A DNA stretch of 64,000 nucleotides from Alphaproteobacteria bacterium (GCA_050175015.1 JBFXJJ010000004.1:32001-96000); one strand, 5' to 3'. Shown: positions 7,969 through 29,442, numbered from the stretch's first letter. Program-made: numbers and translations. The notes: generated by a model not told the origin, from the sequence alone.

Positions 7969-9288
7969 ATGACAGCTTCGCCAATAATATTGTGGTTTAA
8001 AGATGATTTTAGATTTGTCGACAATGCGGCTTTAAATGCCGCAGCTAAAACAAAACGGACTATAATTCCCATTATTATAAGCGACAAAAAATTAAACCCC
8101 AAGGCTAAAGAATGGCGTCTATCATCAGTAAGCAGTTTAGCAAAAAAAATTAATACCTTGCAAGGAAACTTATATTACTTTGATGATGAGAACAAAAGCT
8201 TACAAGAAACAATAATTCTAATCTGCCGCCTTACCAGCGCATCAGAAATATATACTTCAGAAAGTGCTTCTTTTAACAAGTCGGAAAAAGAATTTGAACT
8301 GCAAAAAGAACTTAGCAAAAACAATCTTTTGCTGCATATCAGTCCACCTAATCTTTTAGTAGCTAGAGATGCTGTACGCAATAAAACAGGCAATCCATAT
8401 CAAAAATTTGCAGGCTTTTATAATCGATTACTAGAATTAGACATAGAAACGCCTGTTTCAGCACCAAAGGATATTAACTTTTATAACTCCTCTGATTTAG
8501 AAAAATATATTTTCAAGCAATATACCAAGCCAAATAATTTTTATGCTCAGCCTGGGGAAGAAGGCGCTTTTTCTGTTTTAGAATATTTTATAAAAAATAG
8601 GCTTAAAGATTATAGTGTTAATCGGGAATTTCCAGCCATCACGGGAACCTCTATGCTCTCGCCATACATCGCTTTAGGTGAGATTTCAGTAAAAACTATC
8701 TGGCATACTGTAAAACAAAGCTTTTTAGAACAAGATAAAATTTCATTTTTGCGGCAAGTCGTATGGAGAGAATTCTGTTATGATTTACTCAAGAGATATC
8801 CCAATATGGCAGAAAAACCAATTCGAGACAATTTTGCAAGTTTTCCTTGGACTTTTGATAAAGAGCTTTTTGAAAAATGGCAAAATGGAATTACAGGATA
8901 CCCTCTAGTCGATGCAGGTATAAGAGAGTTAAATCAAACAGGATATATGCATAACAGAGTGCGAATGATAACCGCATCATTTTTAACAAAGCACTTATTA
9001 ATACCGTGGCAATTCGGTGAAAAATATTTTAAAGAGAAACTATTAGATTATGATGAAGCCAACAACGCTGGCAACTGGCAGTGGGTAGCTGGCTGTGGAA
9101 TGGATTCTGCACCTTTTTTCCGTATATTTAACCCCGAATTACAAGCACAGAAATTTGATTCCAAACAAGAATATATTTTAAAATATATCCCTGAATTTTT
9201 TACCAGCTATCCTAAGCCAATTGTTAATCACCAAAAAGCTAGAGAAGCTGCTCTTACAGCTTATCATACCAATCTGGGTCGAATTTAA
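7969..9288 (+). CDS. phrB: Deoxyribodipyrimidine (CPD) photolyase
   Basis: Motifs WFKDDFRFVDNAAL, TSMLSPYIALGEIS, TGYPLVDAGIREL, GYMHNRVRM and WQWVAGCG. ATG at 7969 preferred over TTG at 7903. Confidence 0.9.
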   Translation: MTASPIILWFKDDFRFVDNAALNAAAKTKRTIIPIIISDKKLNPKAKEWRLSSVSSLAKKINTLQGNLYYFDDENKSLQETIILICRLTSASEIYTSESASFNKSEKEFELQKELSKNNLLLHISPPNLLVARDAVRNKTGNPYQKFAGFYNRLLELDIETPVSAPKDINFYNSSDLEKYIFKQYTKPNNFYAQPGEEGAFSVLEYFIKNRLKDYSVNREFPAITGTSMLSPYIALGEISVKTIWHTVKQSFLEQDKISFLRQVVWREFCYDLLKRYPNMAEKPIRDNFASFPWTFDKELFEKWQNGITGYPLVDAGIRELNQTGYMHNRVRMITASFLTKHLLIPWQFGEKYFKEKLLDYDEANNAGNWQWVAGCGMDSAPFFRIFNPELQAQKFDSKQEYILKYIPEFFTSYPKPIVNHQKAREAALTAYHTNLGRI

Positions 9289-10324
9289 CCTTAGAACGAA
9301 TTTCTTTTAGACTTTCAAGCCATTCTTTATTAGCTCTAGTTCCGCCAACGACTTCCTGACGAGCATTATAAATATCTGGCGACATAAATCTCTTAAGTTT
9401 TGCTCTCTGATCGTCGTCCATCAAACCAAAAGCAAAGTCAATGATATGGCACATAGCACATTCTTTAGCAAAAGTAAGACCATCTTCAAGTTTAATAGCA
9501 ACGCCAAGACCAAGAGCTGGAACCATCGCTATTTCGGTTCCTCTATTTCCTTGTTTGCAAACAACGCCTTTTAAAACCGCCGTAGAGGTAGAGTCAAAGC
9601 ATTTATTACCGCCATAATAATCAGGATATTTCATCATAGCTTTTATAATTTTGCGGCAGGCAGCAGCTTTTTTATCATCTAAGACTTCAGGTTTAGCAAA
9701 TTTGGCATAAGCTCTAGCAACTTCTCTTCTAGTAAAAGCAAAGGCAGGAACACCGCAGCCTTCAGTTGCTACTTCAGCTTTGTCCATATCGGCTTCAGTC
9801 ATTTCACCTAAAGTTTTTTTGACGAGCTGTTGAATTGGGTGATCTAACTCAATATAATTTTTTAAAGGAAATCCTAAAAATTTAGATACCGTTAAAAAGT
9901 TGGTATGTTTTCCTGAACAATTATTGTGAATTGGACGATATTCGGTTATCCCTCTTCTGATTAAAACATCAAAATTAGTATCATAGTTAGGAGGACCACA
10001 TTCTAACAAGTCCTCTGACAAACCAACGCGAGTAAGCCAATTAGCAATCGTTTCTTCTTGAAAATCTTCCCCGTAATGTGAAGAACAGCCAACCGCCAAC
10101 TCTTTTTCTGTTATATTAAAAAAATCGGCAGCACCTGATACAATTAATGGAATCTCCTGCATAGGTTTTGCGGCTGACCTAATAAATACAGCTTCATCAA
10201 TATCACCATAAGAAGCAAGGACTTCTCCTTCTGAACTAATTATAGCAACACTTCCTCTGTGCCTCGTTTCAACAACATTCCCCCTTACAACTTCAACTAA
10301 GACAGGGTTTGCTTTTTTTTCCAT
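9254..10324 (-). CDS. Rhizobium-type (class 3) L-asparaginase family protein
   Basis: Motifs RGNVVETRHRG, RSAAKP and HNNCSGKH. The 3' end overlaps the photolyase gene by 35 bp. Confidence 0.85.
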   Translation of the reverse strand: MEKKANPVLVEVVRGNVVETRHRGSVAIISSEGEVLASYGDIDEAVFIRSAAKPMQEIPLIVSGAADFFNITEKELAVGCSSHYGEDFQEETIANWLTRVGLSEDLLECGPPNYDTNFDVLIRRGITEYRPIHNNCSGKHTNFLTVSKFLGFPLKNYIELDHPIQQLVKKTLGEMTEADMDKAEVATEGCGVPAFAFTRREVARAYAKFAKPEVLDDKKAAACRKIIKAMMKYPDYYGGNKCFDSTSTAVLKGVVCKQGNRGTEIAMVPALGLGVAIKLEDGLTFAKECAMCHIIDFAFGLMDDDQRAKLKRFMSPDIYNARQEVVGGTRANKEWLESLKEIRSKVKFDPDWYDKL

Positions 10325-10428: not shown

Positions 10429-11397
10429 TTAGGTTACTTCGGTAACAGCCCTTAGGTTACCTTCGCGGTTAATCTGCACAACTCTGAGTTTTTCTCTCAT
10501 TTCAGCAATAGTTTTTACTCTATCAATCGTAGGGTACGTGTGCAAAATACGATCACAAAAAGCCTTATAGGCCTGCTCTGAACTTTCGGCGTGGATAGTT
10601 GCAAAACAGTTATCGTGACCAGAACCCATAAGTTCCCATAGCGCTCCGGCGTTAGCCGTTGAAATTTCACCGCCGATAATAGCATCAGGAGTAAAACGCA
10701 CTATAAGGTCAATAACTTTAGCATAGTTTAAGTTGTTTGTCTGCTCTGTTCTGGAAAGAACAACGTGAACTCTATTTGGATGGGGAACAATAAGTTCCCT
10801 TGTATCTTCAACTGTTATAACCCGTTTATGAATATCAAGTATCTTCAAAAGATTGTTTAAGAATGTGGTTTTACCTGTTGCCGTAGCACCACTGACTAAA
10901 ATGTGATCGCCACGCTTAATAGATAAGAGCAGTCTTTCATAAGGATCGTCTGGCATTTCTATTTCTTTAAGAGCATTAATACGGTGAAGTCTTTCGCCTT
11001 GTCTTAAACCATAATCCTGCAAACCAAATGCAACATCGTCGGCGTGAACACGAATAGCTAAAGAAACACCGCCTGTTAAATCCTTATTATCATACATTAC
11101 GTTACGGCCGCATATCGCAGAAAAACGGTGATCTCCAGGCAATGTCGCATACAGCACAGGAGTTCCTCTTTCTGGATCAAAATCAAGCTCATATGTATTA
11201 GCAATAATATGGAGTAAATCATTTAAATAGGTACGAGATAGTTTGGGGTCTTTCTGACAAGCCCAAGGATGCGCTCTTTTACCTCTAAGTCTAAGCCAAA
11301 TCTCTCCAGGACAATTAATTGCGACTTCTTCAACATTATCTTGGTTATACCAATATGAAAGATTACGTAGAACAGATTCTAAAACAAAAAAAGACAT
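10429..11397 (-). CDS. virB11: VirB11-family secretion ATPase
   Basis: Walker A GATATGKTT, Asp box VEDTREL, Walker B region RFTPDAIIGGE and His box SGHDNCFATIHA; directly follows virB10. Confidence 0.85.
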   Translation of the reverse strand: MSFFVLESVLRNLSYWYNQDNVEEVAINCPGEIWLRLRGKRAHPWACQKDPKLSRTYLNDLLHIIANTYELDFDPERGTPVLYATLPGDHRFSAICGRNVMYDNKDLTGGVSLAIRVHADDVAFGLQDYGLRQGERLHRINALKEIEMPDDPYERLLLSIKRGDHILVSGATATGKTTFLNNLLKILDIHKRVITVEDTRELIVPHPNRVHVVLSRTEQTNNLNYAKVIDLIVRFTPDAIIGGEISTANAGALWELMGSGHDNCFATIHAESSEQAYKAFCDRILHTYPTIDRVKTIAEMREKLRVVQINREGNLRAVTEVT

Positions 11398-11416
11398 TTT
11401 TAACCTCCATTAAACG

Positions 11417-14400
11417 CTAAAATAATTCAACGCTTTGACTTGCTGACGGAGCTGGCGCTGTTGTTTTGCTACCAGCTGTAGTTCCCTGTTGCCCTGTGGC
11501 CTGAGGAGTTGTCGTGGTTGTCGACGACGAAGGCCCTGGAGGCGGAATATAAGGCGTTACAACTTGCTGCTGAGTACCATCTTGGGCTCGTGGCTGAACG
11601 TCCATATCAAGCGTTCTTCTATCAAGTCTTTCTTCTTCTTCCTGCTTATCTCCAAAGAGACGGCTCTTACCATCATCAGTAACTCTAGATTCATTATATT
11701 TTGTAATAAGTTCTGTTGCAGCTGTTGCCGCATCCTTAAGCCATAAATCTGTTCCTGGGAATACCGTAAGTCTTGTACCTGCTGGGATAAACATAACAAT
11801 ATCCAAATTGCCAACATCTTCCAGAATATCGGTAAAAATTTCGTTGAATTTTTCTTTAAAGTCATCACGAGCATCATTCGCGGCTTCAGCTTTAGCCGAT
11901 AACGTTGTTACACCATCTGAAGTTGACGTTTCATCATCTGTAGTTAACAAATAAAGAACAGCACCACTGCCAATAGATGATAACAAAGGCAAACCATAGC
12001 GTCTAACAATCTGTAAATCCACATATCCTACAACACCACCGCGTCCTTGAGCATCACCCGATACCGAACCTTCTAAATCAAACGCAGCCCCATCTGGCCT
12101 TATAAGTCTTGACCACGTAATTTGGACTTTAGGTGAAGCCTTAGAGTTAGTGTCAGCACCAGAGACCTGCCCCATTAAACGGCTTCCAGATGGTATGACA
12201 ATATTGCGGCCATCATCACCATAGATATTTCTCTCAACTACAGCGGTTACAGGCACAGGATTTCGAGAATCATACGCTCTTACAAGAACGGCTGGAATAG
12301 GTTTATCGGCAGCAATCATATTGCTTCGGTCAACAGGAAGTGTAGACATAGCCTTGCTCCACTGCAAATCAGACCAATCTATACCTTTTCCCTGTTTTAT
12401 TGCTTCTAAGCGTTTTATAAGTTCTTCATTCCCTCTGTCAAAGCTTGACGGAATATTTGCAGGAATAGCCTTTGCCATTCTTGCTTGCTGCATTCTTCTA
12501 AGAAGCGCTAAATTGTCATTACTATATCTTTCTCCTGGTCCAAAACCGCCGCCTGGACCAAGATAGCCTCCAGGTCCCTCGCCTGTACCGTAAAGTCCCC
12601 CATTGCCAGTTGTTCCTTTAGGAACAAAGAAACCATCTGTTTTTTCTTCCTCGTCTTCAACAACTATGGCTTCTTTATCTTTAAATTTTTTACGGTCTTC
12701 TTCCAAAGCTTCTTCGACATCAATTTTTTCTTTATAGCCATACATCAGTTCTTCAGGAATAACTTCTGGAAGAGGAAGATTGCGCCAGTCTCTTCTGATA
12801 TAGCCCATAAGATTATTATCCTTATCGAAAGCCTTACCTTCCTGATTGACACTACCTATAATCATATTGTTAACATCAAAAACTGCATTCTTAGCATTCA
12901 TAATACCAACATAACGATTTTGTAAGTCTCTAACAAAATTATCGGGATCGGCGAAACCTTGAACCACATTATCATTATCGCCAAAAAGACCATTAGGATA
13001 AACCCTGCCAATTACGCCACCATTATAACCTATAACTTGGCTATCAGATCTCATAATACCTGCAATTCTTCCTGATTTATCAAATATAAATAGACCTTTA
13101 TCCAAAGAACCTGCGATTTTTTGGTCTTTATCTAGAATTAAATCATCTTGAGGTTCACCCAAAACATCACCTGCTTGATTTTCTGGCTTATTATCAAAAG
13201 AATAACGTCCAACTATAGTACCAGCAGCGTTTCTTATAACTCTATCGTTATAAACTGCGCCGATGGTTTTGCCAGACACATCTATTACTAAACCGTCAGG
13301 AAGAGCTGTTCCAACAAACTCATCTTTATCATTAACCGTTCTTCTATCAGGCAAAGCCTTTGCTACCCAATCGCCTCGAGCATCAAGAACCCTCCAGTAG
13401 TTACCCTCTTTTACTGGCGGTTTTGTGCCTGAGAAATAACCAATAATACTTCCTTCAAGATCGATAGCAACACCATCATAATTCAACTTGCCGATAATCT
13501 TGCCAAAGTCATCTCTAACCCACCGGTCTCCACCAGCTAAAACTTCACCAACAACCTCTTGTTTGCTGTTAATGACAACTTTATCTGCCCTTGCCTGTCC
13601 TATAATAATATTAGTTTTAGGTTCAATAACAGTACCATCAAGCAAATGCACACCGATTACTTTTCCCGTTGGGTCTAAAACAAAGTTAGTATCTGCAAGC
13701 TTTTGTTCATCAACAAACAAGTTTGATTTATAAATAACGTTTTCTACTTTATTATAAGCAATATTATCTTTCTTGCTTATAAGATGTCCTATTATGTTCT
13801 GCTCAAAATCTAGAACAGTACCGTCATTTTTAATCCGTCCTATTTCTTTATTATTCAAATTAACCACAGTGCCATCAACATTGGCTATTCCAATAATTTT
13901 CTTATCTTGATTAATGATATACCCATTAAAAGCAGTTGTTCCGATAATCTTTTTATTATGATCTACAATATCGCCACTGAGCCTTACATGACCCATATTT
14001 TTGCCATGTTCATCAAAAACATAGCCATCTTTCTTGATTTCACCTATAGTTTGGCCTAATTTATCAATAGCAAGACCACTTGGAAGAAGCTGACCAACAA
14101 TATTATTCTCGGCATTTCTAATGTTCTTCTTATCATAAACAGCGCCAATAATACGACCGTCAGAATCTAATACTGTACCATCATATTGAACCTGTCCTAT
14201 CTGCTTCTTGTCAAGATCATAGGCTTTCCCATCAGCGGTTATTCTTCCAAGAATTTCATCATCTCGGTCTCTAATTAAGTCATCAGATATAATCTCGCCC
14301 AACAGAAAATTATCATTATCAACAACACGATTATCGGGCATAATTTTACCAATATCTCTTAGATTATTATCTAGAACTAAGCCGTTAGAAAGCATTCGTC

Positions 14401-16699
14401 CAATCAAGTGCCCTTCAAATCCTAAGGCTAAAGCGCTTTGAATAACCCTGCCAATTACTTTTTTTTGCCCATCTATAACCGTTTTATTGGGAAGCGTTCT
14501 TCCTATAATGCGGCTTTTATCATCAACGACATCACCATTATAAAGAACCCGTCCTAAATATTCCGTATCAAGACCGATAACATCACCTAATGGCACAATA
14601 GAACCGACAGGTTCAGTCCTAGAATCAAGAACAACACCGTTTTTAACAACACAGCCAACCACTTCGTTTTTAGCTATGTTAATAACTTTGCCCGAAGGAT
14701 TAGCTACACCAATAACTTCACCATTATCATCAATAGCTATGCCCTTTTCTAAATAAGAGCCTATTACCAACCCCTTATTATTAACGACTTCCTTATTCTG
14801 CAAAACCCGTCCAATGTTGATTCCTCTACGGTTTTTTACACCGCCATCAGTCTCAATAACACCAAGTAAATCGCATTGATCACTTACCGCTTGTCCAAAG
14901 GGAATGACACTTGCAATTAATTCACCATTGTTATCAATAACATTGTTATCGTCGATTACACGCCCAATAGAATATCCTGAGGGATCTACTACAGAGCCAT
15001 CTAACCTTAGACGACCGATAACTTTTCCACCTTGGACAACAATTCCATCTTGGATAACTCGCCCAAGTACAGGCATAAAATAATCTGATTTTCCTTCTTT
15101 GTATGCCACGACCGAATTATCTGCCAATATTTTAGCGCTTATTTCGCGCTGATTATTTAAAATATTGCCGTCAGGCATAACAGAACCAATTGTGTAGCCT
15201 TTGTTATCAACCGCGAGCCCGTTTTCTACCACCTTGCCAATAAATTGTCCCTTGGAATCAAAAACGTTGCCATACCATAACGCTTTTCCTAATTCTTTAT
15301 TGTCATTGGTAACAACCCTGCCGTTTTCTAAGACTCTACCTATTAAAGCTCCATTAACGCCTATAACATTGTTTTCGTGGATAATACTGCCCTTAACCGC
15401 TCCCGTATCATCAAAAACTATCCCAAAAAAGCTTGTTTTACCCAATTTAGCGTTTTTCTCTATGTAACTGCCATCAGGAGCAACCTTATCAACAACACTG
15501 CCATCTAACCCAACAATAAGACCTTCATCAAGAACCCCGCCAAGCATCTTACCTGTGCTATCAACTGCCATTTTATTAGGATTAGCAACACCTATATTTT
15601 TTCCTAAATAATCAGAAACACTACTATTGGCCATAACATGGCCTTTAATATTCCCGACAGAATCAAAAACAATACCTTTCGGCGCAACACCACCTTTAAT
15701 TGCTCCTTGGGTATCCATCATCAAACCATTAGGCAAAACACTTCCTACAATTTTTTTATTGGAATCAGCCACATTGCCATCAGGCATAACTTGCCCTATG
15801 AATTCACCGTCAATATTAACAACTACAGCTCCTTCTCTAACCAAAGTTCCTAAATAGTTGCCTCTTTCATTAATAACGTGCCCCCTAGGAAGCACACGTC
15901 CAATGCTTATTTCTTCATTACTTATTACTTGGCCATCTATCCTAGCTCTGCCTAGGTATTCTCCTCTGCTTGACAGAGCAAAACCTAACGGCATAAGCTC
16001 ACCAAAGACCTTGTCTTCAATCGATTTAGCAGTGTTAGCAAAAACCATTTTACCAACGATCTTGTTATCTGATGATGTAATAGAACCGTCAGGCATAATC
16101 GAACCTATAACATCTCCGTTATAAGATGCGACAGTTCCTTGATAAAGAATGCTTCCTATGGGCAAATCAGCTTCAACCTCAACAGGTGACTTACGATAGA
16201 CAGTACCATCAGGCATAACATAACCAGTTTTAATACCTCGATTGTCAACGAAATCACCCTCAGAAATAACTCTGCCAATAACTTCACCAAAACTATCAAT
16301 TACTGGAGCTGGTTTTATAACCCTTCCTATAATATTGTTAGCCTTGTTAAAGACCGTACCATCAGGAGCAGCTTTTCCAATATTTTTGCTGGTTTTAGAA
16401 CTAACCGTGCCATCAGGCATAACTCTTCCTAAAACTTTTCTATCATTAGCAATAACAACACCTTGAGAAAGCAGCCCGCCTATAATTTTTTTGCTTTTAT
16501 CGATAACATATCCATCAGAAAGGAGCATACCTATAACGTCTTCATTATTATCAATGACAACACCATCAGGCATAACATAACCAAGAAAACTACCATCTAA
16601 AGCAACAACGGAATCTTGATTAGCGCAGGCAATATTAGAGCGCAAGGTTAGCATCAAGCCAACCATCAAAAGCACCAATTTTGCCCTTAGTATCCTCAA
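11417..16699 (-). CDS. virB10: Giant VirB10/TrbI protein: signal peptide, ~1250 aa of beta-hairpin repeats, C-terminal VirB10 core
   Basis: C-terminal IPAVLVRAYDS...VTAVVERNIY...VIPSGSRLMG...ITWSRLIRPDG...GDAQGRGGVVGYVD...IPAGTRLTVF. N-terminal region consists of DGxVxDxxGxxIGxV repeats. Confidence 0.88.
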   Translation of the reverse strand: MRILRAKLVLLMVGLMLTLRSNIACANQDSVVALDGSFLGYVMPDGVVIDNNEDVIGMLLSDGYVIDKSKKIIGGLLSQGVVIANDRKVLGRVMPDGTVSSKTSKNIGKAAPDGTVFNKANNIIGRVIKPAPVIDSFGEVIGRVISEGDFVDNRGIKTGYVMPDGTVYRKSPVEVEADLPIGSILYQGTVASYNGDVIGSIMPDGSITSSDNKIVGKMVFANTAKSIEDKVFGELMPLGFALSSRGEYLGRARIDGQVISNEEISIGRVLPRGHVINERGNYLGTLVREGAVVVNIDGEFIGQVMPDGNVADSNKKIVGSVLPNGLMMDTQGAIKGGVAPKGIVFDSVGNIKGHVMANSSVSDYLGKNIGVANPNKMAVDSTGKMLGGVLDEGLIVGLDGSVVDKVAPDGSYIEKNAKLGKTSFFGIVFDDTGAVKGSIIHENNVIGVNGALIGRVLENGRVVTNDNKELGKALWYGNVFDSKGQFIGKVVENGLAVDNKGYTIGSVMPDGNILNNQREISAKILADNSVVAYKEGKSDYFMPVLGRVIQDGIVVQGGKVIGRLRLDGSVVDPSGYSIGRVIDDNNVIDNNGELIASVIPFGQAVSDQCDLLGVIETDGGVKNRRGINIGRVLQNKEVVNNKGLVIGSYLEKGIAIDDNGEVIGVANPSGKVINIAKNEVVGCVVKNGVVLDSRTEPVGSIVPLGDVIGLDTEYLGRVLYNGDVVDDKSRIIGRTLPNKTVIDGQKKVIGRVIQSALALGFEGHLIGRMLSNGLVLDNNLRDIGKIMPDNRVVDNDNFLLGEIISDDLIRDRDDEILGRITADGKAYDLDKKQIGQVQYDGTVLDSDGRIIGAVYDKKNIRNAENNIVGQLLPSGLAIDKLGQTIGEIKKDGYVFDEHGKNMGHVRLSGDIVDHNKKIIGTTAFNGYIINQDKKIIGIANVDGTVVNLNNKEIGRIKNDGTVLDFEQNIIGHLISKKDNIAYNKVENVIYKSNLFVDEQKLADTNFVLDPTGKVIGVHLLDGTVIEPKTNIIIGQARADKVVINSKQEVVGEVLAGGDRWVRDDFGKIIGKLNYDGVAIDLEGSIIGYFSGTKPPVKEGNYWRVLDARGDWVAKALPDRRTVNDKDEFVGTALPDGLVIDVSGKTIGAVYNDRVIRNAAGTIVGRYSFDNKPENQAGDVLGEPQDDLILDKDQKIAGSLDKGLFIFDKSGRIAGIMRSDSQVIGYNGGVIGRVYPNGLFGDNDNVVQGFADPDNFVRDLQNRYVGIMNAKNAVFDVNNMIIGSVNQEGKAFDKDNNLMGYIRRDWRNLPLPEVIPEELMYGYKEKIDVEEALEEDRKKFKDKEAIVVEDEEEKTDGFFVPKGTTGNGGLYGTGEGPGGYLGPGGGFGPGERYSNDNLALLRRMQQARMAKAIPANIPSSFDRGNEELIKRLEAIKQGKGIDWSDLQWSKAMSTLPVDRSNMIAADKPIPAVLVRAYDSRNPVPVTAVVERNIYGDDGRNIVIPSGSRLMGQVSGADTNSKASPKVQITWSRLIRPDGAAFDLEGSVSGDAQGRGGVVGYVDLQIVRRYGLPLLSSIGSGAVLYLLTTDDETSTSDGVTTLSAKAEAANDARDDFKEKFNEIFTDILEDVGNLDIVMFIPAGTRLTVFPGTDLWLKDAATAATELITKYNESRVTDDGKSRLFGDKQEEEERLDRRTLDMDVQPRAQDGTQQQVVTPYIPPPGPSSSTTTTTPQATGQQGTTAGSKTTAPAPSASQSVELF

Positions 16700-16702
16700 A
16701 TA

Positions 16703-19700
16703 CTATCTCCTCAATATACTTGAAAGCTGCGTAACAATTCGTCCTTCAACTTTGCCTTCTAAGTTAACAAAAGTACCATCACCTCTAATTAGTCCCACAT
16801 TCTTGCCGTCACTTCTTGCAACAGAACCATCGAGCATTACTCTTCCTATAATCTTGCCGTCTTGTCCCATAACAACGGAACCAATAGGGAGAACTCCACC
16901 AATGACGTTTCCAATAAGATTAACCACGGTATTATCAGGTAGTGCTCGACCAATTATATTATTATTAGTATCTATGATTTGTCCATTTATTCTAACAATT
17001 CCAATAACTTTTCCCTCAGCATCAATTGCCATACCTCTGTTTATAACTTTACCAATAACCATATTAGTTTCAGTCATAACCATACCATCAGATAAAACCT
17101 TTCCTATCTCTAGCCCCTTTTTATCAAGGACTGAGCCTGATGGCGTTGCAATACCTATAATCTCTCCGCCGTGGTCAACAACAACACCTCTTGGCATTTT
17201 AAAACCAAGATTATCCATAACAACCCCGTTAGGAAGCATTGTGCCTAATTTGTTGCCTATTTTGCTAACAGCATTACCATCAGACAAAATACGGCCGACA
17301 ACTTCACCATCAGTATCTATCGCTATTCCTTCTTCAACAACTTTTCCAATAATCTGCCCCCTGTTGCTTAGAACTATACCGTCAGGAGCAACAGAACCAA
17401 CAATCATACCATTAGGATTTACAACCATACCATCAGACAACGCATTACCTAAATATATGCCATCGGCTCCAATTACAACTCCCTTGCTGACGACACCGCC
17501 GATTATACTGCCATCATTTTGCAAAACCAAACCATCGGGCAGAACTCTCCCCAAGACCTCACCTTTGCGATTAACAACCTTGGCATTATAATTTGTAACA
17601 CCATATAAAGATGTATCCATTTTAATCGCTGTACCATACAACGTTGGTTTGCCTATTATACCTCTATAAAAACCCAAACCGTCGCCATAAATACTGCCTA
17701 TTTTTATTCCCTTTTTATCATAAACCGTTCCATCAGCTAAAAACTGACCCAAAACTTCGCCATTAAAGTCAGTGATATAACGGCGGCTTTCGATAAAACC
17801 TCCTAAAGCCTCACCTTTTTCATTAATAATGGTACCATCAGGCATAGTTCTCATAACACCATTGCCAGTAGCTTCACCTATCTGACCATCATCTTTAAGC
17901 CCGCCAAGCGCTCTGCCGTCAGACGTAAAACCAAAGCCATCTTTTAAAACTCGGCCTACATACGCACCATTTTTAGCAAAGACATCACCTTCAAAGTTAG
18001 CACAACCTAATTGTTCTTGTTTCTTATTTTCGACAATCCCATCTTCCCTTACTTTGCCAAGAACAACGCCATCAAGTCCTACCGCAACGGCACCTTTGTC
18101 AACGACACCACCGATTATATCATTATTATGATCAGTTACGGATCCATTAGAATTTACACAACCTATAACATCGCCTTTTTCATTGTATACCTTGCCATTA
18201 ACCCTAACATCTCCAATAACACGGCAGCCAACTGCAACAACTTTGCCCATAGGCATTAAGGAGCCAAAATAATTGCCAGACAAGTCTTCTGCTGTGCCAT
18301 CAAATAAGATGCGCCCTACAATTTTAGCTTTTTCTCCTATAATTTCGCCATTATCGTTAACAACACCTCGCATATCACAGCCCATATCAACAACAGGCCC
18401 ACCAGAAACAGCTTGTCCCACAACTTGTTCATTAGAATCTAAAATAGCGCCATCATAACGAACACGTCCGATGGTTGCATTTTCACGATCATTAACTCTT
18501 CCATCAGGCAAAATGCGGCCAACAAATTTTCCTCCTGGACCTATAGCTATACCTGTTGGAGCTAAACCTCCTATAATTTGCTTATCAAGTCCAACTATTC
18601 TGCCGTCTGGAAGCATATTGCCTATTATATTGCCTTTGCCATCAACGACATCGCCATTTTCTAGAACCTTGCCAATAATTTTACCATTATCGTCTCTTAC
18701 TATCTGTTCGTCTTTTTGAGTATGACCTATAACACTTCCATCTAAATCGACTATAAGACCATCTTTATCACGCTTGCCAATAACATTGCCATTTAAATCA
18801 ACCACATCGCCATTTGGCATAACCCTTCCTATAAGTTTGCCATTTTCATCATAAACAGGAGTTCCAAGACAAATGCCGCCAATAACTCGACCACGAGTAT
18901 CTACAATCTTGTCATCTTTTCTAACCGCTCCAATAACATTACCCTCGAAATCGACAACAGAAGAATCTGCTTTAGCTGTTCCTATAACTTGGTCGTTTAA
19001 GTCACACGCAAGCCTATCTTTCATATCGAGATATCCGATAGCATTGCCATCTAAATCAACAATGCTTCCATCAGGCAACATTTTACCTATGACATTACCA
19101 TCTAAATCGACAACAGTTCCGTCAGGAAGAACTCTGCCAATAATATTGCCATTTACATCTCTTACAAATTGGTCATCAGCACCAAGCAACCCGATTTCTT
19201 CGCCATTTAAACCGACGACTTTTCCATTAGGCAGAACTCTACCTATAATATTGCCATCAGGGTCAAAAACAAACTTCTCGTTACCATCAACTTGCCCAAT
19301 AACATTGCCATCTAAATCAACAACCGTACCATTAGGTTTCATATTGCCTATAATATTGCCATTCATATCAAGCACTTTATTATCAGGCCCCAATCTGCCA
19401 ATAATATTGCCATTTAAATCTCTGGCATAATCTTGACTTCCTATTCTGCCAATAATGTTGCCATTCGCATCAACTACCGTACCGTCAGGAAGCAATCTCC
19501 CAATAACATTGCCGTTAGCATCAACCACTGTACCATCAGGCAGCGCCCAACCTATAATGTTACCGTTCTCATCATATATTGGAATTCCTAATCGGCCAAT
19601 TTCTTTGCCATTTAAATCAACGACAGAACCATCATCATTAGCTTTTCCTATAACCTTGCCGTTTAAATCCAAGGCTGTTCCATCAGTTAAAACCCTGCCT

Positions 19701-21394
19701 ATTATGTCTCCATCAGGATTACGAATAAAATCTTCATAACCTTCGATTTGGCCAATTACATTACCATCAGGATCCAACACCCTGCCATTAGGTGCCATTT
19801 TACCAATAGACTTGCCGTTTAAATCAACGACATTGCCACCAGGTAACAATCTTCCAATAATGTTGCCCTTTAAATTTCTTGCTAATTTTTCTTTATTGCC
19901 AACTCTTGCTATGACATTACCATTAGCATCTACCACCGTACCGTCAGGCAGCAATCTTCCTATAACATTGCCATTAGCATCTACCACCGTCCCATCAGGC
20001 ATAGCCCAACCGATAAGATTGCCATTTTCATCATATATTGGAATACCGACACCACCAAGCTCCTGCCCATCAAGACCATATGCTTTGTTAGAACCTGAAC
20101 CAGTTATTCTCCCAAGCTCTGCCCCATCAATCCCAACAATGGAACCATCATCTTGCATATATCCTATAACCGAGCCATCTGGATTGATAATCGTGCCGTC
20201 AGGCATCAAAATGCCTATAGGCTTACCATCTGCTCCATAAATAACCTTACCTGCTTCACGAACACGGCCAATAACCTTACCTGCAAGGTCAACAACGGTA
20301 CCATCACAAAGCATTTTGCCCACGATTTCGCCTTGGCTGTTAATTACAGAACCGTCATCTAATACTTTACCAATAATATTGTTATTATTATCGTATGCTT
20401 GTCCTGCTTCGACAGCCTTTCCGACAATAACGCCATCATCATTAATAACAGTTCCATCAAGCTGAGCAGTTCCTAATTTTTTACCTTCGGCATCAACAGC
20501 ATCGCCATTTTCTAATATTTTACCCGCTATTTGATCATTAACATCACAAAACAACCTTCTATTTTGGGCGACACTTATTAAGTTTCCTAGTAAATCATAT
20601 ACCAGTCCGTCTTCCCCAACTTTACCTATCAAATTGCCATCTAAATCATAAACTTTGCCGTCATCGCCAATAGTTCCCATAATCTGGCCGGTTGGACTCA
20701 TTGCATATCTTGGAACTCTTGAAGAACCTCCCTTATAAGATGCTCCGACATTGAAGGTTCTATCTTTTGCATCTTTGCAAATTAATTTATCAACCGCTCT
20801 TGCCCTTATTAAAACTTTTTCAGCACGATTTTGATTGGAGCCTCCGCCCATTCCCATATCTCTTGCACGTTCACGCCAAACTATTATTATGTTGTTCTGC
20901 ATGGTTTCTGCAACAAGAGGTTCCCAAGTAAAGTCAATATTACAAGTTACCTCATCAGATAAAACTAAACCTGGCTGGCATTTATTGTCATATTTAAAAC
21001 CTTCAGCAGGAGGCTTCGCAAGCTCAATAGAAACGATTTCAACGTTAAGATTGCCATATGTACCAACAGTAAGAACGCTGTCAGCTTTTGTGCCGACAGT
21101 AACATCTCCTAAGTCGACCACCTTCGGAGTATAATTAATTGGAGATCTACGGTCAGTTAAAAGACCGAATTCAAGAGCAGGATCATTTTGTTCAACTTCT
21201 GGAACCAACGGCAAAACATCATCTGTCCCCACAATTTTAATATCTTCATATTGTTCAACCTCTTCACCCCCACCCATAATAAAGGCAAGACCAATGAGGA
21301 AAAAAATCATAGAAATAATGCCTACTATTAAAATAATAGTATTGGTCTTTTTTAAATATATATCCGATGTACTGAGATTATTATCACTACTCAT
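16703..21394 (-). CDS. Membrane-anchored giant beta-repeat protein embedded in the virB operon
   Basis: N-terminal TM helix (TIILIVGIISMIFFLIGLAFIM), an Ig-like segment with a Cys pair (KCQPGLVLSDEVTCNIDFTWEP), then ~1300 aa of 17-aa repeats (DGTVVDANGNVIGRLLP). Its ATG overlaps the virB9 stop. Confidence 0.8.
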   Translation of the reverse strand: MSSDNNLSTSDIYLKKTNTIILIVGIISMIFFLIGLAFIMGGGEEVEQYEDIKIVGTDDVLPLVPEVEQNDPALEFGLLTDRRSPINYTPKVVDLGDVTVGTKADSVLTVGTYGNLNVEIVSIELAKPPAEGFKYDNKCQPGLVLSDEVTCNIDFTWEPLVAETMQNNIIIVWRERARDMGMGGGSNQNRAEKVLIRARAVDKLICKDAKDRTFNVGASYKGGSSRVPRYAMSPTGQIMGTIGDDGKVYDLDGNLIGKVGEDGLVYDLLGNLISVAQNRRLFCDVNDQIAGKILENGDAVDAEGKKLGTAQLDGTVINDDGVIVGKAVEAGQAYDNNNNIIGKVLDDGSVINSQGEIVGKMLCDGTVVDLAGKVIGRVREAGKVIYGADGKPIGILMPDGTIINPDGSVIGYMQDDGSIVGIDGAELGRITGSGSNKAYGLDGQELGGVGIPIYDENGNLIGWAMPDGTVVDANGNVIGRLLPDGTVVDANGNVIARVGNKEKLARNLKGNIIGRLLPGGNVVDLNGKSIGKMAPNGRVLDPDGNVIGQIEGYEDFIRNPDGDIIGRVLTDGTALDLNGKVIGKANDDGSVVDLNGKEIGRLGIPIYDENGNIIGWALPDGTVVDANGNVIGRLLPDGTVVDANGNIIGRIGSQDYARDLNGNIIGRLGPDNKVLDMNGNIIGNMKPNGTVVDLDGNVIGQVDGNEKFVFDPDGNIIGRVLPNGKVVGLNGEEIGLLGADDQFVRDVNGNIIGRVLPDGTVVDLDGNVIGKMLPDGSIVDLDGNAIGYLDMKDRLACDLNDQVIGTAKADSSVVDFEGNVIGAVRKDDKIVDTRGRVIGGICLGTPVYDENGKLIGRVMPNGDVVDLNGNVIGKRDKDGLIVDLDGSVIGHTQKDEQIVRDDNGKIIGKVLENGDVVDGKGNIIGNMLPDGRIVGLDKQIIGGLAPTGIAIGPGGKFVGRILPDGRVNDRENATIGRVRYDGAILDSNEQVVGQAVSGGPVVDMGCDMRGVVNDNGEIIGEKAKIVGRILFDGTAEDLSGNYFGSLMPMGKVVAVGCRVIGDVRVNGKVYNEKGDVIGCVNSNGSVTDHNNDIIGGVVDKGAVAVGLDGVVLGKVREDGIVENKKQEQLGCANFEGDVFAKNGAYVGRVLKDGFGFTSDGRALGGLKDDGQIGEATGNGVMRTMPDGTIINEKGEALGGFIESRRYITDFNGEVLGQFLADGTVYDKKGIKIGSIYGDGLGFYRGIIGKPTLYGTAIKMDTSLYGVTNYNAKVVNRKGEVLGRVLPDGLVLQNDGSIIGGVVSKGVVIGADGIYLGNALSDGMVVNPNGMIVGSVAPDGIVLSNRGQIIGKVVEEGIAIDTDGEVVGRILSDGNAVSKIGNKLGTMLPNGVVMDNLGFKMPRGVVVDHGGEIIGIATPSGSVLDKKGLEIGKVLSDGMVMTETNMVIGKVINRGMAIDAEGKVIGIVRINGQIIDTNNNIIGRALPDNTVVNLIGNVIGGVLPIGSVVMGQDGKIIGRVMLDGSVARSDGKNVGLIRGDGTFVNLEGKVEGRIVTQLSSILRR
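19440..20045 (-). repeat. Intragenic 51-bp tandem units and a 459-bp higher-order duplication
   Basis: CCATTAGCATCTACCACCGT occurs at 19920 and 19971; ATCATATATTGGAAT occurs at 19571 and 20030. Confidence 0.8.
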
Positions 21395-22845
21395 CGCGTT
21401 CTTACGACATTACATGAGATCCCTCTGCGAGCAAGATTTTCACAAAGAATGTCGCCTTCATTAAGGGTTTTTATCGGTCCTATTCTTAAATAAAAAGTTT
21501 CTTTTCCTGAGCCATCGGCTGGAGTATCTACAGAATAAAATGGTTCATAACCTTGAAGTAAATCCTTGTTCTGAGCTTCAATACTAGTCCACATTTTTTC
21601 TAAGTTAGCAACATTAGTATCCGATGATATTTCAATCGAAATATTGTTTCTTATCGCCATACTTTCGGTTTTTTCTCTGCTTACAAAAAATGCTGGTCCA
21701 ACATTTGAATCTCTAACTAAATCCATTCCGTTTTGAACATATTGAGCATTTGCCATATCTTGGGCAGCCGCAACCTTATGCAGCGATGACAATTCTGGTT
21801 CAGGAACGTCCCAAGCCGAAATAGCACTATTGTCATATTCAACCATATCAAGCCCAAAAGCAGGGTCTTTTCTAAGTTTTAGACATACTATTTTAGCCCC
21901 ATTCCTTAGAACCATATCGCCAACGGCTTCAACAACAATTAATCGACCGTATTTTCCTCTCGTTCTAAAGCCGACAGGAACCTCGCTTTTCTGCACAATT
22001 AAATTAACCACAGGCCTTTGCAGCATATTAAGAGCTTTAGGACCTAAATCAATGTAGGTAAAAATATCATCTCTCCATACTCTCTCTGGAGCAATATCAA
22101 CATCTGTAGGGTTGATAACGTAAACCTCTATATCAAATTTTATTTTTTCAGGGTCTACAGGAACATCACTCCACCAATTGCCTTTTTTATTATCACTCTG
22201 AGAATTTTTGCCGCCTTTAGCGCCACCAGCTCCTCCGAATGAAACTGAATTTGGAGTAGAGCCTGCAACCTGAACGCTGCCTTGCAATGGATTGTCTTCA
22301 TCCGATACTTCAATATCAACAACTAAATGTGTCAGCCTTTCCGTGTTGATACCTTCGCTTCGTACATAAAAAACATACTTATTACCTGAACGACCTATCA
22401 AAACGATATTAGAGTCAACGCCAGCTGGCATTCCTGTTGCTGGCATAACTAAAATCTGATTGTGAGAAATCTGCTGTGCTGAGAAACTGCCAGAATCACC
22501 GACCCAAGCATCTTGAATATATTCCCAATCTGGAAAATTGATTAAGGTTATCATAGACTGCCGGATTCTTATCGGCATAATCGTTCCATTGGTCCAAACA
22601 TATCTAGAATATGCAGGCTTAGTCTGACCTTCGCCCATATTGCGAAGCGGATCAAGCCAAGCTTTCTGTGTCATACCTAAGCTATAGCCCATATAGTCAA
22701 GATTCATAGGCTGATAAACCCCCTGAGATTCATTTATCTGAGTATCAACTTGATCTAAACTTTGAGAAATAGATAACGATGGTTTGATTACAAAACCAAC
22801 CAAAACTATCAAAAATAAAATTTTTAACCTTATCTTAGCCATCAT
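21391..22845 (-). CDS. virB9: VirB9/TrbG/CagX-family protein with C-terminal SPOR domain
   Basis: Signal peptide; ITLINFP..EYIQDAWVGDS, SNIVLIGRSGNKYVF, IAPERVWRDDIFTYID and MVLRNGAKIVCL; C-terminal FYLRIGPI...LCENLARRGISC. Confidence 0.82.
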   Translation of the reverse strand: MMAKIRLKILFLIVLVGFVIKPSLSISQSLDQVDTQINESQGVYQPMNLDYMGYSLGMTQKAWLDPLRNMGEGQTKPAYSRYVWTNGTIMPIRIRQSMITLINFPDWEYIQDAWVGDSGSFSAQQISHNQILVMPATGMPAGVDSNIVLIGRSGNKYVFYVRSEGINTERLTHLVVDIEVSDEDNPLQGSVQVAGSTPNSVSFGGAGGAKGGKNSQSDNKKGNWWSDVPVDPEKIKFDIEVYVINPTDVDIAPERVWRDDIFTYIDLGPKALNMLQRPVVNLIVQKSEVPVGFRTRGKYGRLIVVEAVGDMVLRNGAKIVCLKLRKDPAFGLDMVEYDNSAISAWDVPEPELSSLHKVAAAQDMANAQYVQNGMDLVRDSNVGPAFFVSREKTESMAIRNNISIEISSDTNVANLEKMWTSIEAQNKDLLQGYEPFYSVDTPADGSGKETFYLRIGPIKTLNEGDILCENLARRGISCNVVRTR

Positions 22846-22852
22846 TATTTAC

Positions 22853-23563
22853 CTATTTAATGCTGCCGCCCATTGATGTTCCATCATTACGTCTAAAAGA
22901 AAACTCTACAACCGTAAAGCCTAAAGGATTTTTTAAACGCTCCTCAAAGGGAACTCGTTTTCTTCTAAAAATTATTCTCAACTGCGCTGTCCAATTTGTT
23001 ATTGTTGGGACTTCGGTTGTCGGCGTAATATCTGTCGTTTCATATTCCACCTGCCAAATTCCTTTGGACAGTTCATTTGAACTTAGTATTTTTACATCTC
23101 TTGTGAGTTTTTGACTACTTATTATTGCTAAAACCTTTTTCGCATTTTCTAAAAAGGATTGATAAACTGCTGGTGCTGACATTTCTTGCATTGGACCGTT
23201 ATCAAGCCATCTTGCTTTCATTTCTTCCATATCATCAACAAAAGTATTGCTGATGAGAATATACTGGCGAACAAACGCCTCAGAAACAGTTCTGTTTCCT
23301 GTCAAATCAACTGCGTGTCTAATATTTACAATCTGTCTTTCTTTGTTGCTAAACGTCACCAAAAAAGGCTCTATTCTTACAAGAGGTACTATTTGGAAAA
23401 TTGTAATAATTAAAACTATATTGCACAAAAAACTGACAACAGAAACAAGAGCGAAGGCTCTTGCTGTCCACAAATAACGTCTTTCAGCTAAACTTTCCGC
23501 AGAATAGCTGCTCAAGTATTCACTATCTTGAGAACCGTTTTCTTGTTCAATTTCTTGCATCAA
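22853..23563 (-). CDS. virB8: VirB8-family protein
   Basis: Single TM, PLVRIEPFLV, EAFVRQYI and C-terminal KNPLGFTVVEF (NPxG motif). Confidence 0.85.
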   Translation of the reverse strand: MMQEIEQENGSQDSEYLSSYSAESLAERRYLWTARAFALVSVVSFLCNIVLIITIFQIVPLVRIEPFLVTFSNKERQIVNIRHAVDLTGNRTVSEAFVRQYILISNTFVDDMEEMKARWLDNGPMQEMSAPAVYQSFLENAKKVLAIISSQKLTRDVKILSSNELSKGIWQVEYETTDITPTTEVPTITNWTAQLRIIFRRKRVPFEERLKNPLGFTVVEFSFRRNDGTSMGGSIK

Positions 23564-23570
23564 TAAAACC

Positions 23571-23771
23571 TTAAACTGCGGCTTCAGTTAACCATTCAGG
23601 AAGTCCTGGAAGCATCTCAACTGGCATACAAGCACAAGGAGAAACTTTTAATTCCGCAGGATCTTTACCAAAACTTACTGGCTCAGGTTCATAGATTGAA
23701 CCTGGGATACAAGAGGTACATAAAAAAACCGAAATAAGTAACAAAAATTTTTTCAACATAATTCTCACCAA
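23571..23771 (-). CDS. virB7: Small lipoprotein, VirB7-like
   Basis: Lipobox-like LCTSC and LKVSPCAC motif; about 60 aa; immediately upstream of virB8-virB9. Confidence 0.6.
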   Translation of the reverse strand: MVRIMLKKFLLLISVFLCTSCIPGSIYEPEPVSFGKDPAELKVSPCACMPVEMLPGLPEWLTEAAV

Positions 23772-23993: not shown

Positions 23994-24710
23994 TTAATTG
24001 TTAGTTACAACTTCAGACTGAGCATATCTTGTAACAGTAAAACCTAGCGGATTTAAAAGCAAATTAGTATAAAGCCTGCGATCTTTCCTAAAAATACATT
24101 CAACAGAAGCTGTCCAATTTCTTATAATGGGTTTCATTAAGGCTTCTTGCATATCATATGTTTTAAAATCAACCTGCCAAACAGCACTTCGACCTATCCT
24201 TTTTACTCCTACAATTTTTACTTCTCTGTTACTATGCTGCTCTAGAAATTTAATAATTCCTTTTTTATCCATTCGGTATTTTCTATAAATTTGAGGCGTA
24301 GATAAGAAGAAAACTATTCCTCCTGGAGAAAGCAGGCGAACCATTTCTCCTGGATCTTCAACAATAGTATTCAGAGATTCAACAAAAAGTCTTATAAAAT
24401 TCTCGCGGACAATTTCTTTAGATGGAATGTTAGGATTTGCATGTTCAATACGAGCAATATCCTTAGATTCTTTAAAATCAAGTAAAAACAATGGATCAAC
24501 ATCTATCTGCGGGACAATTTGAAGCAATGATAATGAAAACAAAACATTTCCAACTAACATAACCATTGCTAAAAGGGTAAATAAACGCGCCAGCCACATG
24601 TAATACATGCGGCGTGGCGGTATATTTTCTTCTCTTCCCATACCAAGAAAACTTAAAGGAAGATTTGGTTTAACGTTATTGTCAGTAACAAGTACTGAAT
24701 TTTCGGCCAT
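23994..24710 (-). CDS. virB8: Second VirB8-family protein
   Basis: Single TM, ENFIRLFV, VWQVDFKTYD and LNPLGFTVTRY. Confidence 0.82.
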   Translation of the reverse strand: MAENSVLVTDNNVKPNLPLSFLGMGREENIPPRRMYYMWLARLFTLLAMVMLVGNVLFSLSLLQIVPQIDVDPLFLLDFKESKDIARIEHANPNIPSKEIVRENFIRLFVESLNTIVEDPGEMVRLLSPGGIVFFLSTPQIYRKYRMDKKGIIKFLEQHSNREVKIVGVKRIGRSAVWQVDFKTYDMQEALMKPIIRNWTASVECIFRKDRRLYTNLLLNPLGFTVTRYAQSEVVTNN

Positions 24711-26320: not shown

Positions 26321-26349
26321 TTCCTTAGCTCCTTAAAAGTAATCCATAA

Positions 26350-27195
26350 TTATTGAAGCGACTGCAAAACTGGCGCATCTGACGGATTAGAATTCAACAA
26401 CATTTTCTTAAATGACTCACGACGTTGTTTTATAGCTTCCAACTCATTTTTCTGTGTTAAAACCTTGTTTAAAAGAGCTTTTGCTAAAACATTGGTTTTA
26501 GTAATCGTATTTAAATCGGCAGCTTCATCTATCTGTTCAACAAGAGCATCTATCTGATCTCTAGTATTATCCAAGTCTTTTTGAATAATAGCCAACCTAG
26601 AAAAGATACTAATAGCATCAACTTGGCTCGTTTGCTGTCTCATTAGCATTTGATGAGAAACTTCATCAAGAGTGCCAGAAATTTTTGTTGTGAAACTACC
26701 TTCAACAGCAGAACCGACACTAAGAGGATCCTCTAAATCAATGCTTGAACCACTTGATTTCAAACCGCTAATAGTAGCACTAAAAGCACTATCAGAAGAA
26801 ACACTACTCTTCAAAAGAGAAAGTTCTGGTACGCCTGTGATTTCCTCATTGTCGCCCATAACACCTTTTCTTAAATAAGTATTATAATCTGAAACTTTCT
26901 TTTCTAAATCGTTGTCTCTCTCATCAGCAAGATCTGTTCTCTTTTTGGCTGTATTTATAGCTTTTGTTTCTTTAAAGTCTAAAGGCTTATTGGCCTCCAG
27001 AGCCATACAAAACTGACAACAAATACAAGCGCATGATGTACAGGGGTATGGGCAACAGCACCATATTACTATACACAAATTACAAGCGAACGAACTTTTC
27101 AATGGTATTGATACCATCATTAAAAGTGCTGCTAAAAAACTTAACATTTTGCGACGCATGGCTTTGCTCCAATAAACTTTGTTTAACTTTTTCAA
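26350..27195 (-). CDS. Exported VirB5-like protein with a Cys-rich N-terminal module
   Basis: Signal peptide, CNLCIVIWCCCPYPCTSCACICCQFC, and C-terminal TRDQIDALVEQIDEAADLNTITKTN resembling VirB5 helices. Confidence 0.55.
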   Translation of the reverse strand: MKKLNKVYWSKAMRRKMLSFLAALLMMVSIPLKSSFACNLCIVIWCCCPYPCTSCACICCQFCMALEANKPLDFKETKAINTAKKRTDLADERDNDLEKKVSDYNTYLRKGVMGDNEEITGVPELSLLKSSVSSDSAFSATISGLKSSGSSIDLEDPLSVGSAVEGSFTTKISGTLDEVSHQMLMRQQTSQVDAISIFSRLAIIQKDLDNTRDQIDALVEQIDEAADLNTITKTNVLAKALLNKVLTQKNELEAIKQRRESFKKMLLNSNPSDAPVLQSLQ

Positions 27196-27210
27196 AATAA
27201 ACTTTTACTA

Positions 27211-28695: not shown

Positions 28696-28710
28696 TTGTT
28701 ACCTTGAAGT

Positions 28711-29406: not shown

Positions 29407-29442
29407 AATCGAAATCCCTTTCTTAGTAAAATTTTGCCTCTA

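Follow-up and report, generated by a model that had tools for sequence, protein, structure and literature searches.

A giant VirB10-type protein carried by two coupled genes in an uncultured alphaproteobacterium

Canonical VirB10 is a single chain of ~400 aa. The known enlarged VirB10 homologues, CagY of Helicobacter pylori and DotG of the Legionella Dot/Icm system, are likewise single chains, with repeat types that differ from those described here. VirB10 is the subunit linking the inner and outer membranes in type IV secretion systems (T4SS) (PMC12857230), and it is treated, also in this 2025 T4SS review, as the one subunit coupling the inner-membrane ATPases physically and energetically to the outer-membrane pore (PMC12857230). 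The passages of the review that deal with VirB10 homologues treat DotG and TrwE as single homologues only, and describe the C-terminus of DotG as forming the outer-membrane dome (PMC12857230). Here we analyzed a stretch of 64,000 nt (GCA_050175015.1 JBFXJJ010000004.1:32001-96000; hereafter the window, with positions counted from its first letter) of a metagenome-assembled genome (MAG) of an uncultured alphaproteobacterium (Alphaproteobacteria bacterium) from a landfill metagenome, in which two very large and tightly coupled open reading frames (ORFs), ORF-A and ORF-B, lie between virB9 and virB11.

This pair is a real, conserved and new variant of VirB10, and its gene structure, domain content, coupling signals and conservation of design are directly established below. 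Judging from the sequences, we consider it likely that the pair is a genuine, evolved two-gene giant VirB10, in which ORF-A is anchored in the inner membrane, ORF-B is translationally coupled to it and exported by Sec, and the two halves re-associate. Searches of openly accessible main texts found neither an account of a VirB10 that is giant, split or of beta-flower type nor a paper on the single-chain giant beta-flower VirB10s reported here.

Domain content of ORF-A and ORF-B

Seven consecutive minus-strand genes make up the locus, in the order virB8 paralogue, 66-aa ORF, virB8, virB9, ORF-A, ORF-B, and virB11. A first-pass annotation of this DNA had placed two huge genes between virB9 and virB11, and the coordinates agree with the tight spacing it gave, ORF-A overlapping virB9 by 4 nt and being separated from ORF-B by a gap of 3 nt. 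The features of the two genes are:

16703-21394, minus strand: ORF-A, N-terminal (inner-membrane anchor) half of the giant VirB10 as assigned from Pfam and homology to fused forms, 1563 aa plus TAG
21272-21394, minus strand: ORF-A residues 1-41, short cytoplasmic tail with the S..Y.KKTN motif, then membrane helix (AlphaFold2, Kyte-Doolittle, alignment)
20792-21139, minus strand: ORF-A residues 86-201, ASH/PapD-like (HYDIN/VesB-type immunoglobulin (Ig)-like) beta-sandwich (Foldseek; AlphaFold2, predicted local distance difference test (pLDDT) ~95)
16742-20710, minus strand: ORF-A residues 229-1551, 17-residue beta-hairpin (beta-flower family) repeats (Bflower_2, period 17, AlphaFold2 hairpins)
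16706-16741, minus strand: ORF-A residues 1552-1563, non-repeat C-terminal tail RIVTQLSSILRR (low confidence in AlphaFold2, pLDDT 46)
16706-16711, minus strand: AGGAGA Shine-Dalgarno sequence for ORF-B, within the last two Arg codons of ORF-A (sequence)
16700-16705, minus strand: TAG stop of ORF-A and one in-frame TAT codon (sequence; same in a second assembly)
11417-16699, minus strand: ORF-B, half with the VirB10 core, 1760 aa, TTG start (ORF coordinates, Pfam)
16622-16699, minus strand: ORF-B residues 1-26, predicted Sec-type signal peptide (n/h/c features)
12794-16621, minus strand: ORF-B residues 27-1302, 17-residue hairpin repeats (Bflower_2, period 17)
12317-12793, minus strand: ORF-B residues ~1303-1461, linker, acidic and then Gly/Pro-rich (sequence, aligned with relatives)
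11738-12316, minus strand: ORF-B residues 1462-1654, VirB10/TrbI core domain (Pfam TrbI, PF03743, 109.8 bits vs a cut-off of 35)
11420-11737, minus strand: ORF-B residues 1655-1760, Pro/Thr/Gln-rich tail ending in conserved ...LF (alignment)

The Pfam match to TrbI/VirB10 is confined to ORF-B and is absent from ORF-A. The ORF-B core scores below the NCBIfam equivalog level (NF038091 for VirB10, 88.7 bits vs 220; NF038092 for ComB10, 99.9 bits vs 300) and is, by its sequence, a divergent VirB10 member. The anchor helix is on ORF-A, and the chain bearing the core has no inner-membrane anchor and opens with a 26-residue segment resembling a signal peptide. ORF-A has a single strong hydrophobic segment (residues 14-44, Kyte-Doolittle 3.03), and an AlphaFold2 model of its residues 1-300, built with 67 sequences, contains the membrane helix at residues 9-41 with pLDDT up to 96; the first gene was correctly read in the first-pass annotation as a short N-terminus with a membrane helix and without a VirB10 core. 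S10, Y13, and N18 of the tail are nearly invariant in an alignment of 67 N-termini of giant VirB10s, both fused and split.

The membrane helix is followed in the AlphaFold2 model by a disordered linker (residues 43-80) and then by the beta-sandwich, which resembles ASH/PapD-like/MSP folds in Foldseek (2e6j, TMt 0.69; 1msp, 0.65; 6fvi, 0.61; E 1e-6 to 1e-4). This fold match agrees with a weak Pfam ASH match (E 0.0055; 17.3 bits, below the cut-off of 27), with NCBIfam choice-of-anchor-D hits and with Atlas matches, which are leads only (scores <0.9). The invariant columns of this N-terminal domain in the 67-sequence alignment are P90, F133, C139, C151, W157, P159, and W173. A C..C pair near columns 206-209 is also nearly invariant in the 67 sequences, and the window keeps only its first Cys; the sequences of C139/C151 and of this pair suggest periplasmic disulfides.

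The hairpin repeats occupy ~1,320 aa of ORF-A and ~1,280 aa of ORF-B, roughly 2,600 aa in total, and amount to ~78 repeats in ORF-A and ~150 units over both ORFs. Each unit carries a [DN]xxG turn, and G..hG turn motifs most often lie 17 residues apart (30 spacings in ORF-A, 10 in ORF-B), in agreement with the shared 17-aa repeat that had been noticed earlier over ~2,500 aa. Comparison with the beta-flower and DUF3659 families gave strong matches to Bflower_2 (PF21785, cut-off 38; 320.6 bits over 19 stretches in ORF-A and 243.5 bits over 10 stretches in ORF-B), the Pfam families found in the repeats being Bflower, Bflower_2, DUF3659, and RHS_repeat, with no others listed. The AlphaFold2 model of the C-terminal 190 residues of ORF-A (mean pLDDT 76.8) has 18 strands, arranged in three modules of six, and ends in a tail of low confidence. 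A structure search with the ORF-A repeat model gave no solved analogue (best Z 4.4), which does not imply a new fold, and a PDB sequence search with ORF-A gave 0 matches. Inside ORF-A, a segment of 181 nt is duplicated (19431-19611 and 19890-20070, 77% identity, 459 nt apart), corresponding to near-identical protein segments (...GIPIYDENGN.IGWA.PDGTVVDANGNVIGRLLPDGTVVDANGN...), and repeat blocks therefore expand by tandem duplication.

The only hydrophobic stretch of ORF-B is N-terminal (Kyte-Doolittle 1.88) and ends ...NIACA before NQD. It has the features of a signal peptide, with R2, R5, and K7, a 12-residue hydrophobic core, and A at both -3 and -1 (IACA). In a comparison of 37 split forms (the window and 36 related loci described below), the n/h/c form was kept and the -3/-1 rule was obeyed in 37/37, position -3 being A in 28 and V in 9, and position -1 being A in 33, S in 3, and C in 1, where the lone C stems from the motif-based placement of the boundary in one locus (L034). 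The signal peptides are 23-35 residues long with at least two K/R in the n-region. Their pairwise identity is 0.18, vs 0.67 for the first 25 mature residues, and such a difference (18% vs 67%) is typical of signal peptides that function as such. We infer that the ORF-B signal peptide is cleaved, which is consistent with the first-pass picture of the second gene as a VirB10 core (TrbI, 109.8 bits) behind a cleavable-looking signal peptide.

Fused and split relatives

A VirB10-core match was found in 11 of 41 genomes searched, including the window's own genome, the other 40 being related to it as 'same class' only. Four of them (G002, G018, G038, and G023) have a single ORF of 1273, 2222, 2446, and 2831 aa, respectively, between virB9 and virB11, and each of these ORFs has an ORF-A-like N-terminus (S..Y.KKTN, then a helix), the same repeats, an ORF-B-like core and the ...LF end; ORF-A and ORF-B therefore correspond together to one giant VirB10. 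The single-chain giant VirB10s can be aligned at their N-termini with that of ORF-A (tail motif, helix, and beta-sandwich) and at their cores with the C-terminus of ORF-B. The ends of giant VirB10s (the window and the fused proteins P0003-P0006, 5/5) consist of a Pro/Gln/Thr-rich tail with an invariant terminal ...LF (L380, F381), and a Phe at the C-terminus is reminiscent of the signals by which outer-membrane proteins are sorted.

A core profile was run against species-representative genomes, and the best 80 of 155 relatives were kept (L017-L096), nearly all of them from uncultured Alphaproteobacteria of the animal/human gut and rumen. They fall into four classes:

37 of 80 loci: fused, one frame with anchor and core, 1280-2684 aa
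36 of 80 loci: split, with a two-gene junction
6 of 80 loci: cut by a contig end
1 of 80 loci (L086): anchor in another frame than the core, split design absent

The fused forms have neither an internal stop nor an internal Shine-Dalgarno sequence or signal peptide. In all 36 split loci, ORF-A ends with the conserved tail ...NGSF(V/I)DLDKKVAGYALQEVAQNRRN, its conserved end being ...NGSFVDLDKKVAGYALQEVAQNRRN, and in 35 of the 36 CGGAGGAA lies inside the last ORF-A codons (...RRN). ORF-B starts 0-7 nt past the stop in 36/36 (15 GTG, 16 TTG, and 5 ATG when the first in-frame start is taken) and encodes a signal peptide followed by the mature N-terminus (Q/E/A)(E/D)I(T/S)A(I/L)(D/N)F.G..IGKVIPDG. 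The anchor N-terminus is visible in 28 of these loci and lies beyond the fetched stretch in the other 8; ORF-A is 1039-2257 aa long in the 27 complete copies and ORF-B is 1384-1747 aa long. The upstream gene is accordingly conserved beside virB10, since ORF-A adjoins a virB10 with a signal peptide in every split locus, and the earlier suggestion that the anchor half and the outer-membrane-core half are on separate chains is supported by both the homology of ORF-A to fused N-termini and the 36 split relatives.

A maximum likelihood tree of the cores, with 85 rows and a root on 4 short VirB10s, united the 36 split loci and two loci cut by contig ends (L019 and L095) in one clade with a Shimodaira-Hasegawa-like approximate likelihood ratio test (SH-aLRT) support of 100; the design has therefore been kept across many genomes at the species level. 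Another 80 loci came from a scan of metagenome contigs, many of which are the same species from different samples, and a strict rule put 38 of these loci in the split class, 6 in the fused, 18 in the cut and 18 in an 'other' class; 13 of the 18 'other' loci are split by eye, their mature N-terminus starting with I, outside the strict motif. The architecture had not been recognized from described systems in the first-pass annotation, and this stands in that no published description was found, but fused giants exist and the split is common, not unique.

The junction and a proposed joint between the chains

The two-gene protein might work as follows. ORF-A would enter the inner membrane by its N-terminal helix and project its Ig-like domain and ~78 hairpin repeats into the periplasm. 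ORF-B would be translated by coupling to ORF-A, with its Shine-Dalgarno sequence in the last codons of ORF-A and its start 3 nt past the stop, and would then be exported by Sec with cleavage of its signal peptide, its core joining VirB9, and probably also a small lipoprotein, in the outer-membrane complex. Translational coupling would keep the two chains near 1:1, and they would re-associate non-covalently in the periplasm, probably via the ORF-A tail and the ORF-B head, which would restore the link between the membranes. As ~150 hairpin units per protomer pair would not fit across a periplasm as a straight rod, we speculate that they form a folded cage or ring around the channel.

The best hint of a specific joint between the chains comes from conservation on both sides of the junction. 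Within the split clade, pairwise identity is 0.52-0.79 in the last ~130 residues of ORF-A and 0.39-0.56 in the preceding repeat blocks, part of the conservation of the ORF-A tail being accounted for by the embedded ribosome-binding site. In ORF-B, it is 0.43 in alignment columns 1-60 (including the signal peptide), 0.56-0.60 in columns 61-240 (the mature head), 0.33-0.50 in the interior repeats and 0.53-0.72 in the VirB10 core. Prediction of a complex between the C-terminal 190 residues of ORF-A and the N-terminal 190 residues of mature ORF-B, each with a 37-row alignment, scored 0.00 twice and is evidence neither way. If both chains are real but are not re-joined, the ORF-B core would be untied to the inner membrane and ORF-A would be a separate anchored scaffold or accessory protein, standing beside ORF-B presumably as DotF stands beside DotG. 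This alternative has the same gene structure, contact between the chains was not observed, and the wide variation in length of ORF-A (1039-2257 aa vs 1384-1747 aa for ORF-B) fits a looser role for it. We nevertheless consider it unlikely, because ORF-A is homologous to the N-terminal part of the single-chain forms, tight translational coupling is kept in 36/36 loci, and conservation among the repeats is highest beside the junction, suggesting a specific interface. Re-association of two chains seems the better reading, and we tentatively propose, as a possibility we would not yet bet on, that in the split clade and in the window lineage (perhaps independently) the VirB10 halves re-dock via hairpin modules, giving ~3,300 residues per protomer pair, with the signal crossing a non-covalent joint.

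In the window, ORF-A and ORF-B share one frame with only TAG and TAT between them (...TTG AGG AGA TAG TAT TTG AGG...); the first-pass annotation was right about two separate ORFs but had missed this shared frame. AGGAGA lies 6 nt before the TTG start of ORF-B. The ~40 residues flanking the stop are not repeat-like, comprising the 12-residue tail, AGGAGA, and the n/h/c signal peptide, and mature ORF-B starts exactly at a repeat unit.

Several observations weigh against an evolved two-gene VirB10 in the window itself. The window is known from a single MAG and a single sample, whose reads also underlie the second assembly; its ORFs are in frame across a single TAG, which leaves room for a recent nonsense change or some read-through; and giant genes in MAGs do break, as seen in L086, where the frames differ, and in L040, where ORF-A is interrupted once more upstream, although these extra breaks may reflect decay or faulty assembly. 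The window has a long branch (1.3) in the core tree and falls outside the split clade, in a polytomy with the fused locus L017. Finally, the junction flanks of the window, which align almost gap-free with those of the split clade, are only 26-36% identical to them, no higher than to repeats anywhere in the fused proteins, and an orthologous junction site in the window is therefore undemonstrated.

Three other explanations of the stop codon were considered. The gene of the window could be a single giant virB10 freshly broken by a nonsense mutation, that is, a pseudogene or a decaying system whose likeness to the split clade is coincidental, as the in-frame TAG-TAT, the position outside the clade, and the broken copies L086 and L040 would allow. 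A point change in a repeat array, however, would not create the tail, AGGAGA, and an n/h/c signal peptide over ~40 residues, and the two ORFs are otherwise open over 1563 and 1760 codons with intact neighboring vir genes; the junction sequence points to something other than a simple nonsense mutation, and we regard this explanation as quite improbable. Programmed read-through of the TAG, giving a chain of ~3,325 aa alongside the two separate chains, would suit the shared frame and the single stop, and is still less probable. There is no CUA anticodon among the 45 tRNAs of the genome, TAG ends 220 of 1092 long ORFs in these 2.53 Mb, the product would hold an internal hydrophobic segment within its periplasmic repeat array, and a shift of frame separates ORF-A from ORF-B in 31 of 36 split relatives, the split family being therefore independent of read-through and the in-frame state of the window incidental. 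Another genetic code or TAG suppression was rejected on the same TAG usage and tRNA set. ARAGORN reported two tmRNA genes on other contigs of the genome, one permuted (tag ANDNCAPVAVAA) and one of standard form (tag GENNYALAA) near a contig start, the latter of which may come from a mobile element or from contaminating DNA in the MAG. Least probable of all is an error of sequencing or assembly, to which repetitive genes from one metagenome sample might be prone, because a Logan contig of 43,780 nt (depth 15.7), made by another assembler from the same reads of the same run and hence not independent of the sample, has 0 differences over 11000-23000 (12 kb), collapse is unlikely with repeat copies only 60-77% alike at the DNA level, and the same junction was assembled independently in 36 genome records, 38 metagenome contigs (strict rule) and 13 more by eye; the possibility of one gene broken by error, raised in the first-pass annotation, is thus not borne out.

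With an evolved two-gene VirB10 as the preferred reading, one or two origins of the split may be considered. Because canonical VirB10 is a single chain, the split is most simply the fission of a fused giant ancestor. The window split may have arisen independently, judging from the position of its core sequence; forcing the window into the split clade costs 3.3 log-likelihood units (approximately unbiased (AU) test, p 0.423), so that a shared origin is neither shown nor rejected. Junction tails and heads match repeats all along the fused P0003-P0006, and the equivalent site in fused proteins is therefore not locatable. No closer relatives of the window lineage were found in the metagenome scan with its single core protein, and identities in the profile scan were at most 52%. 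Either origin is of interest, as an ancient shared fission or as the same solution reached twice.

Gene neighborhood and comparison with known systems

The other genes of the locus and the gene directly 3' of it are:

23994-24710, minus strand: virB8 paralogue, 238 aa (Pfam VirB8, 44.6 bits vs a cut-off of 23.2)
23571-23771, minus strand: 66-aa ORF, candidate VirB7-like lipoprotein (ORF list and translation; position between both virB8 genes)
22853-23563, minus strand: virB8, 236 aa (Pfam VirB8, 88.6 bits)
21391-22845, minus strand: virB9, 484 aa (Pfam CagX, 60 bits vs a cut-off of 34.2)
10429-11397, minus strand: virB11 ATPase, 322 aa (Pfam T2SSE, 75.8 bits)
9254-10324, minus strand: L-asparaginase II gene, directly 3' of virB11 (Pfam, 300.9 bits)

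The C-terminus of VirB9 is weakly SPOR-like (Pfam SPOR, 17.7 bits, under its cut-off), and VirB11 matches NCBIfam VirB11 TIGR02788 with 143.6 bits, below the cut-off of 249.95. The 66-aa ORF has a basic and hydrophobic N-terminus, Cys residues, a ...FLCTSC... segment and a non-canonical lipobox, and its location between the virB8 genes makes it a candidate VirB7-like lipoprotein. Upstream of the vir genes lie five co-directional ORFs of 527, 281, 494, 231, and 612 aa (24737-31281, minus strand). For four of them, neither Pfam nor NCBIfam gave a match above cut-off. A Peptidase_M23 domain is present in the 494-aa ORF, which might be a peptidoglycan-remodeling partner of the secretion system. 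The 527-aa ORF was considered as a second VirB9 and rejected, having no similarity to VirB9.

Elsewhere in the genome there are a VirB4 gene (contig C9), three VirD4-like genes (C3, C16, and C33) and three tandem TrbL/VirB6 matches on C3, which are weak and all below cut-off; a full secretion machine in this genome is plausible. By its gene layout, the system resembles a scattered, rvh-like VirB/D4-type T4SS. The genes of the rvh system are described as lying in scattered islets, with VirB8 duplicated and VirB6 in multiple copies (Gillespie et al., 2009; PMC2653234), and the genome studied here shares with it the duplicated VirB8 and a virB8-virB9-virB10-virB11 islet apart from VirB4 and from tandem VirB6-like genes. 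The two differ in that virD4 follows virB11 in rvh and the asparaginase II gene does so here, and in that VirB4 and VirB9 are duplicated in rvh; one VirB4 match was found here, and the 527-aa ORF, the one candidate compared with VirB9, did not give a second VirB9. In the parts of that paper dealing with RvhB10, it is not described as split or giant (PMC2653234).

The beta-flower families PF21784/PF21785 are described, in the relevant part of the source, as small predicted domains of ~96 residues without a function or a link to secretion, the fold being known from predictions only (Durairaj et al., 2023; PMC10584680). The present proteins differ in having ~150 units in tandem. In the model of the ORF-A tail, 18 strands form three groups of six, which may or may not correspond to the closed five-fold barrel of ten strands of the beta-flower. 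The fold, so far only predicted, gains here its first clear cellular context, probably within the periplasmic part of a secretion machine. This unusually large type IV system is present in many uncultured Alphaproteobacteria of gut and rumen.

CagY and DotG share with the giant VirB10s a VirB10-like C-terminal core after a long repeat region. The single-chain giant beta-flower VirB10s (37/80 loci; P0003-P0006) are closer, sharing with the pair the N-terminal motif, helix, beta-sandwich, repeats, core and ...LF as well as the virB8-virB9-virB10-virB11 order. Canonical VirB10/TrbI proteins (VirB10 of A. tumefaciens, TraF of pKM101, and TrwE of R388) have in common with the system the TrbI core, the place between virB9 and virB11, and a short N-terminal tail with one membrane helix, which is on ORF-A here. 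They differ in that the present protein is divided into a chain of 1563 aa and one of 1760 aa, that the chain with the core bears a signal peptide instead of an anchor, and that hairpin repeats (~2,600 aa) and an Ig-like domain are inserted. If the proposed re-association is true, VirB10 need not be a single envelope-spanning polypeptide. The conserved natural fission is a ready-made experiment on whether coupling can work over a non-covalent contact, and on which side of it each part of the protein is required.

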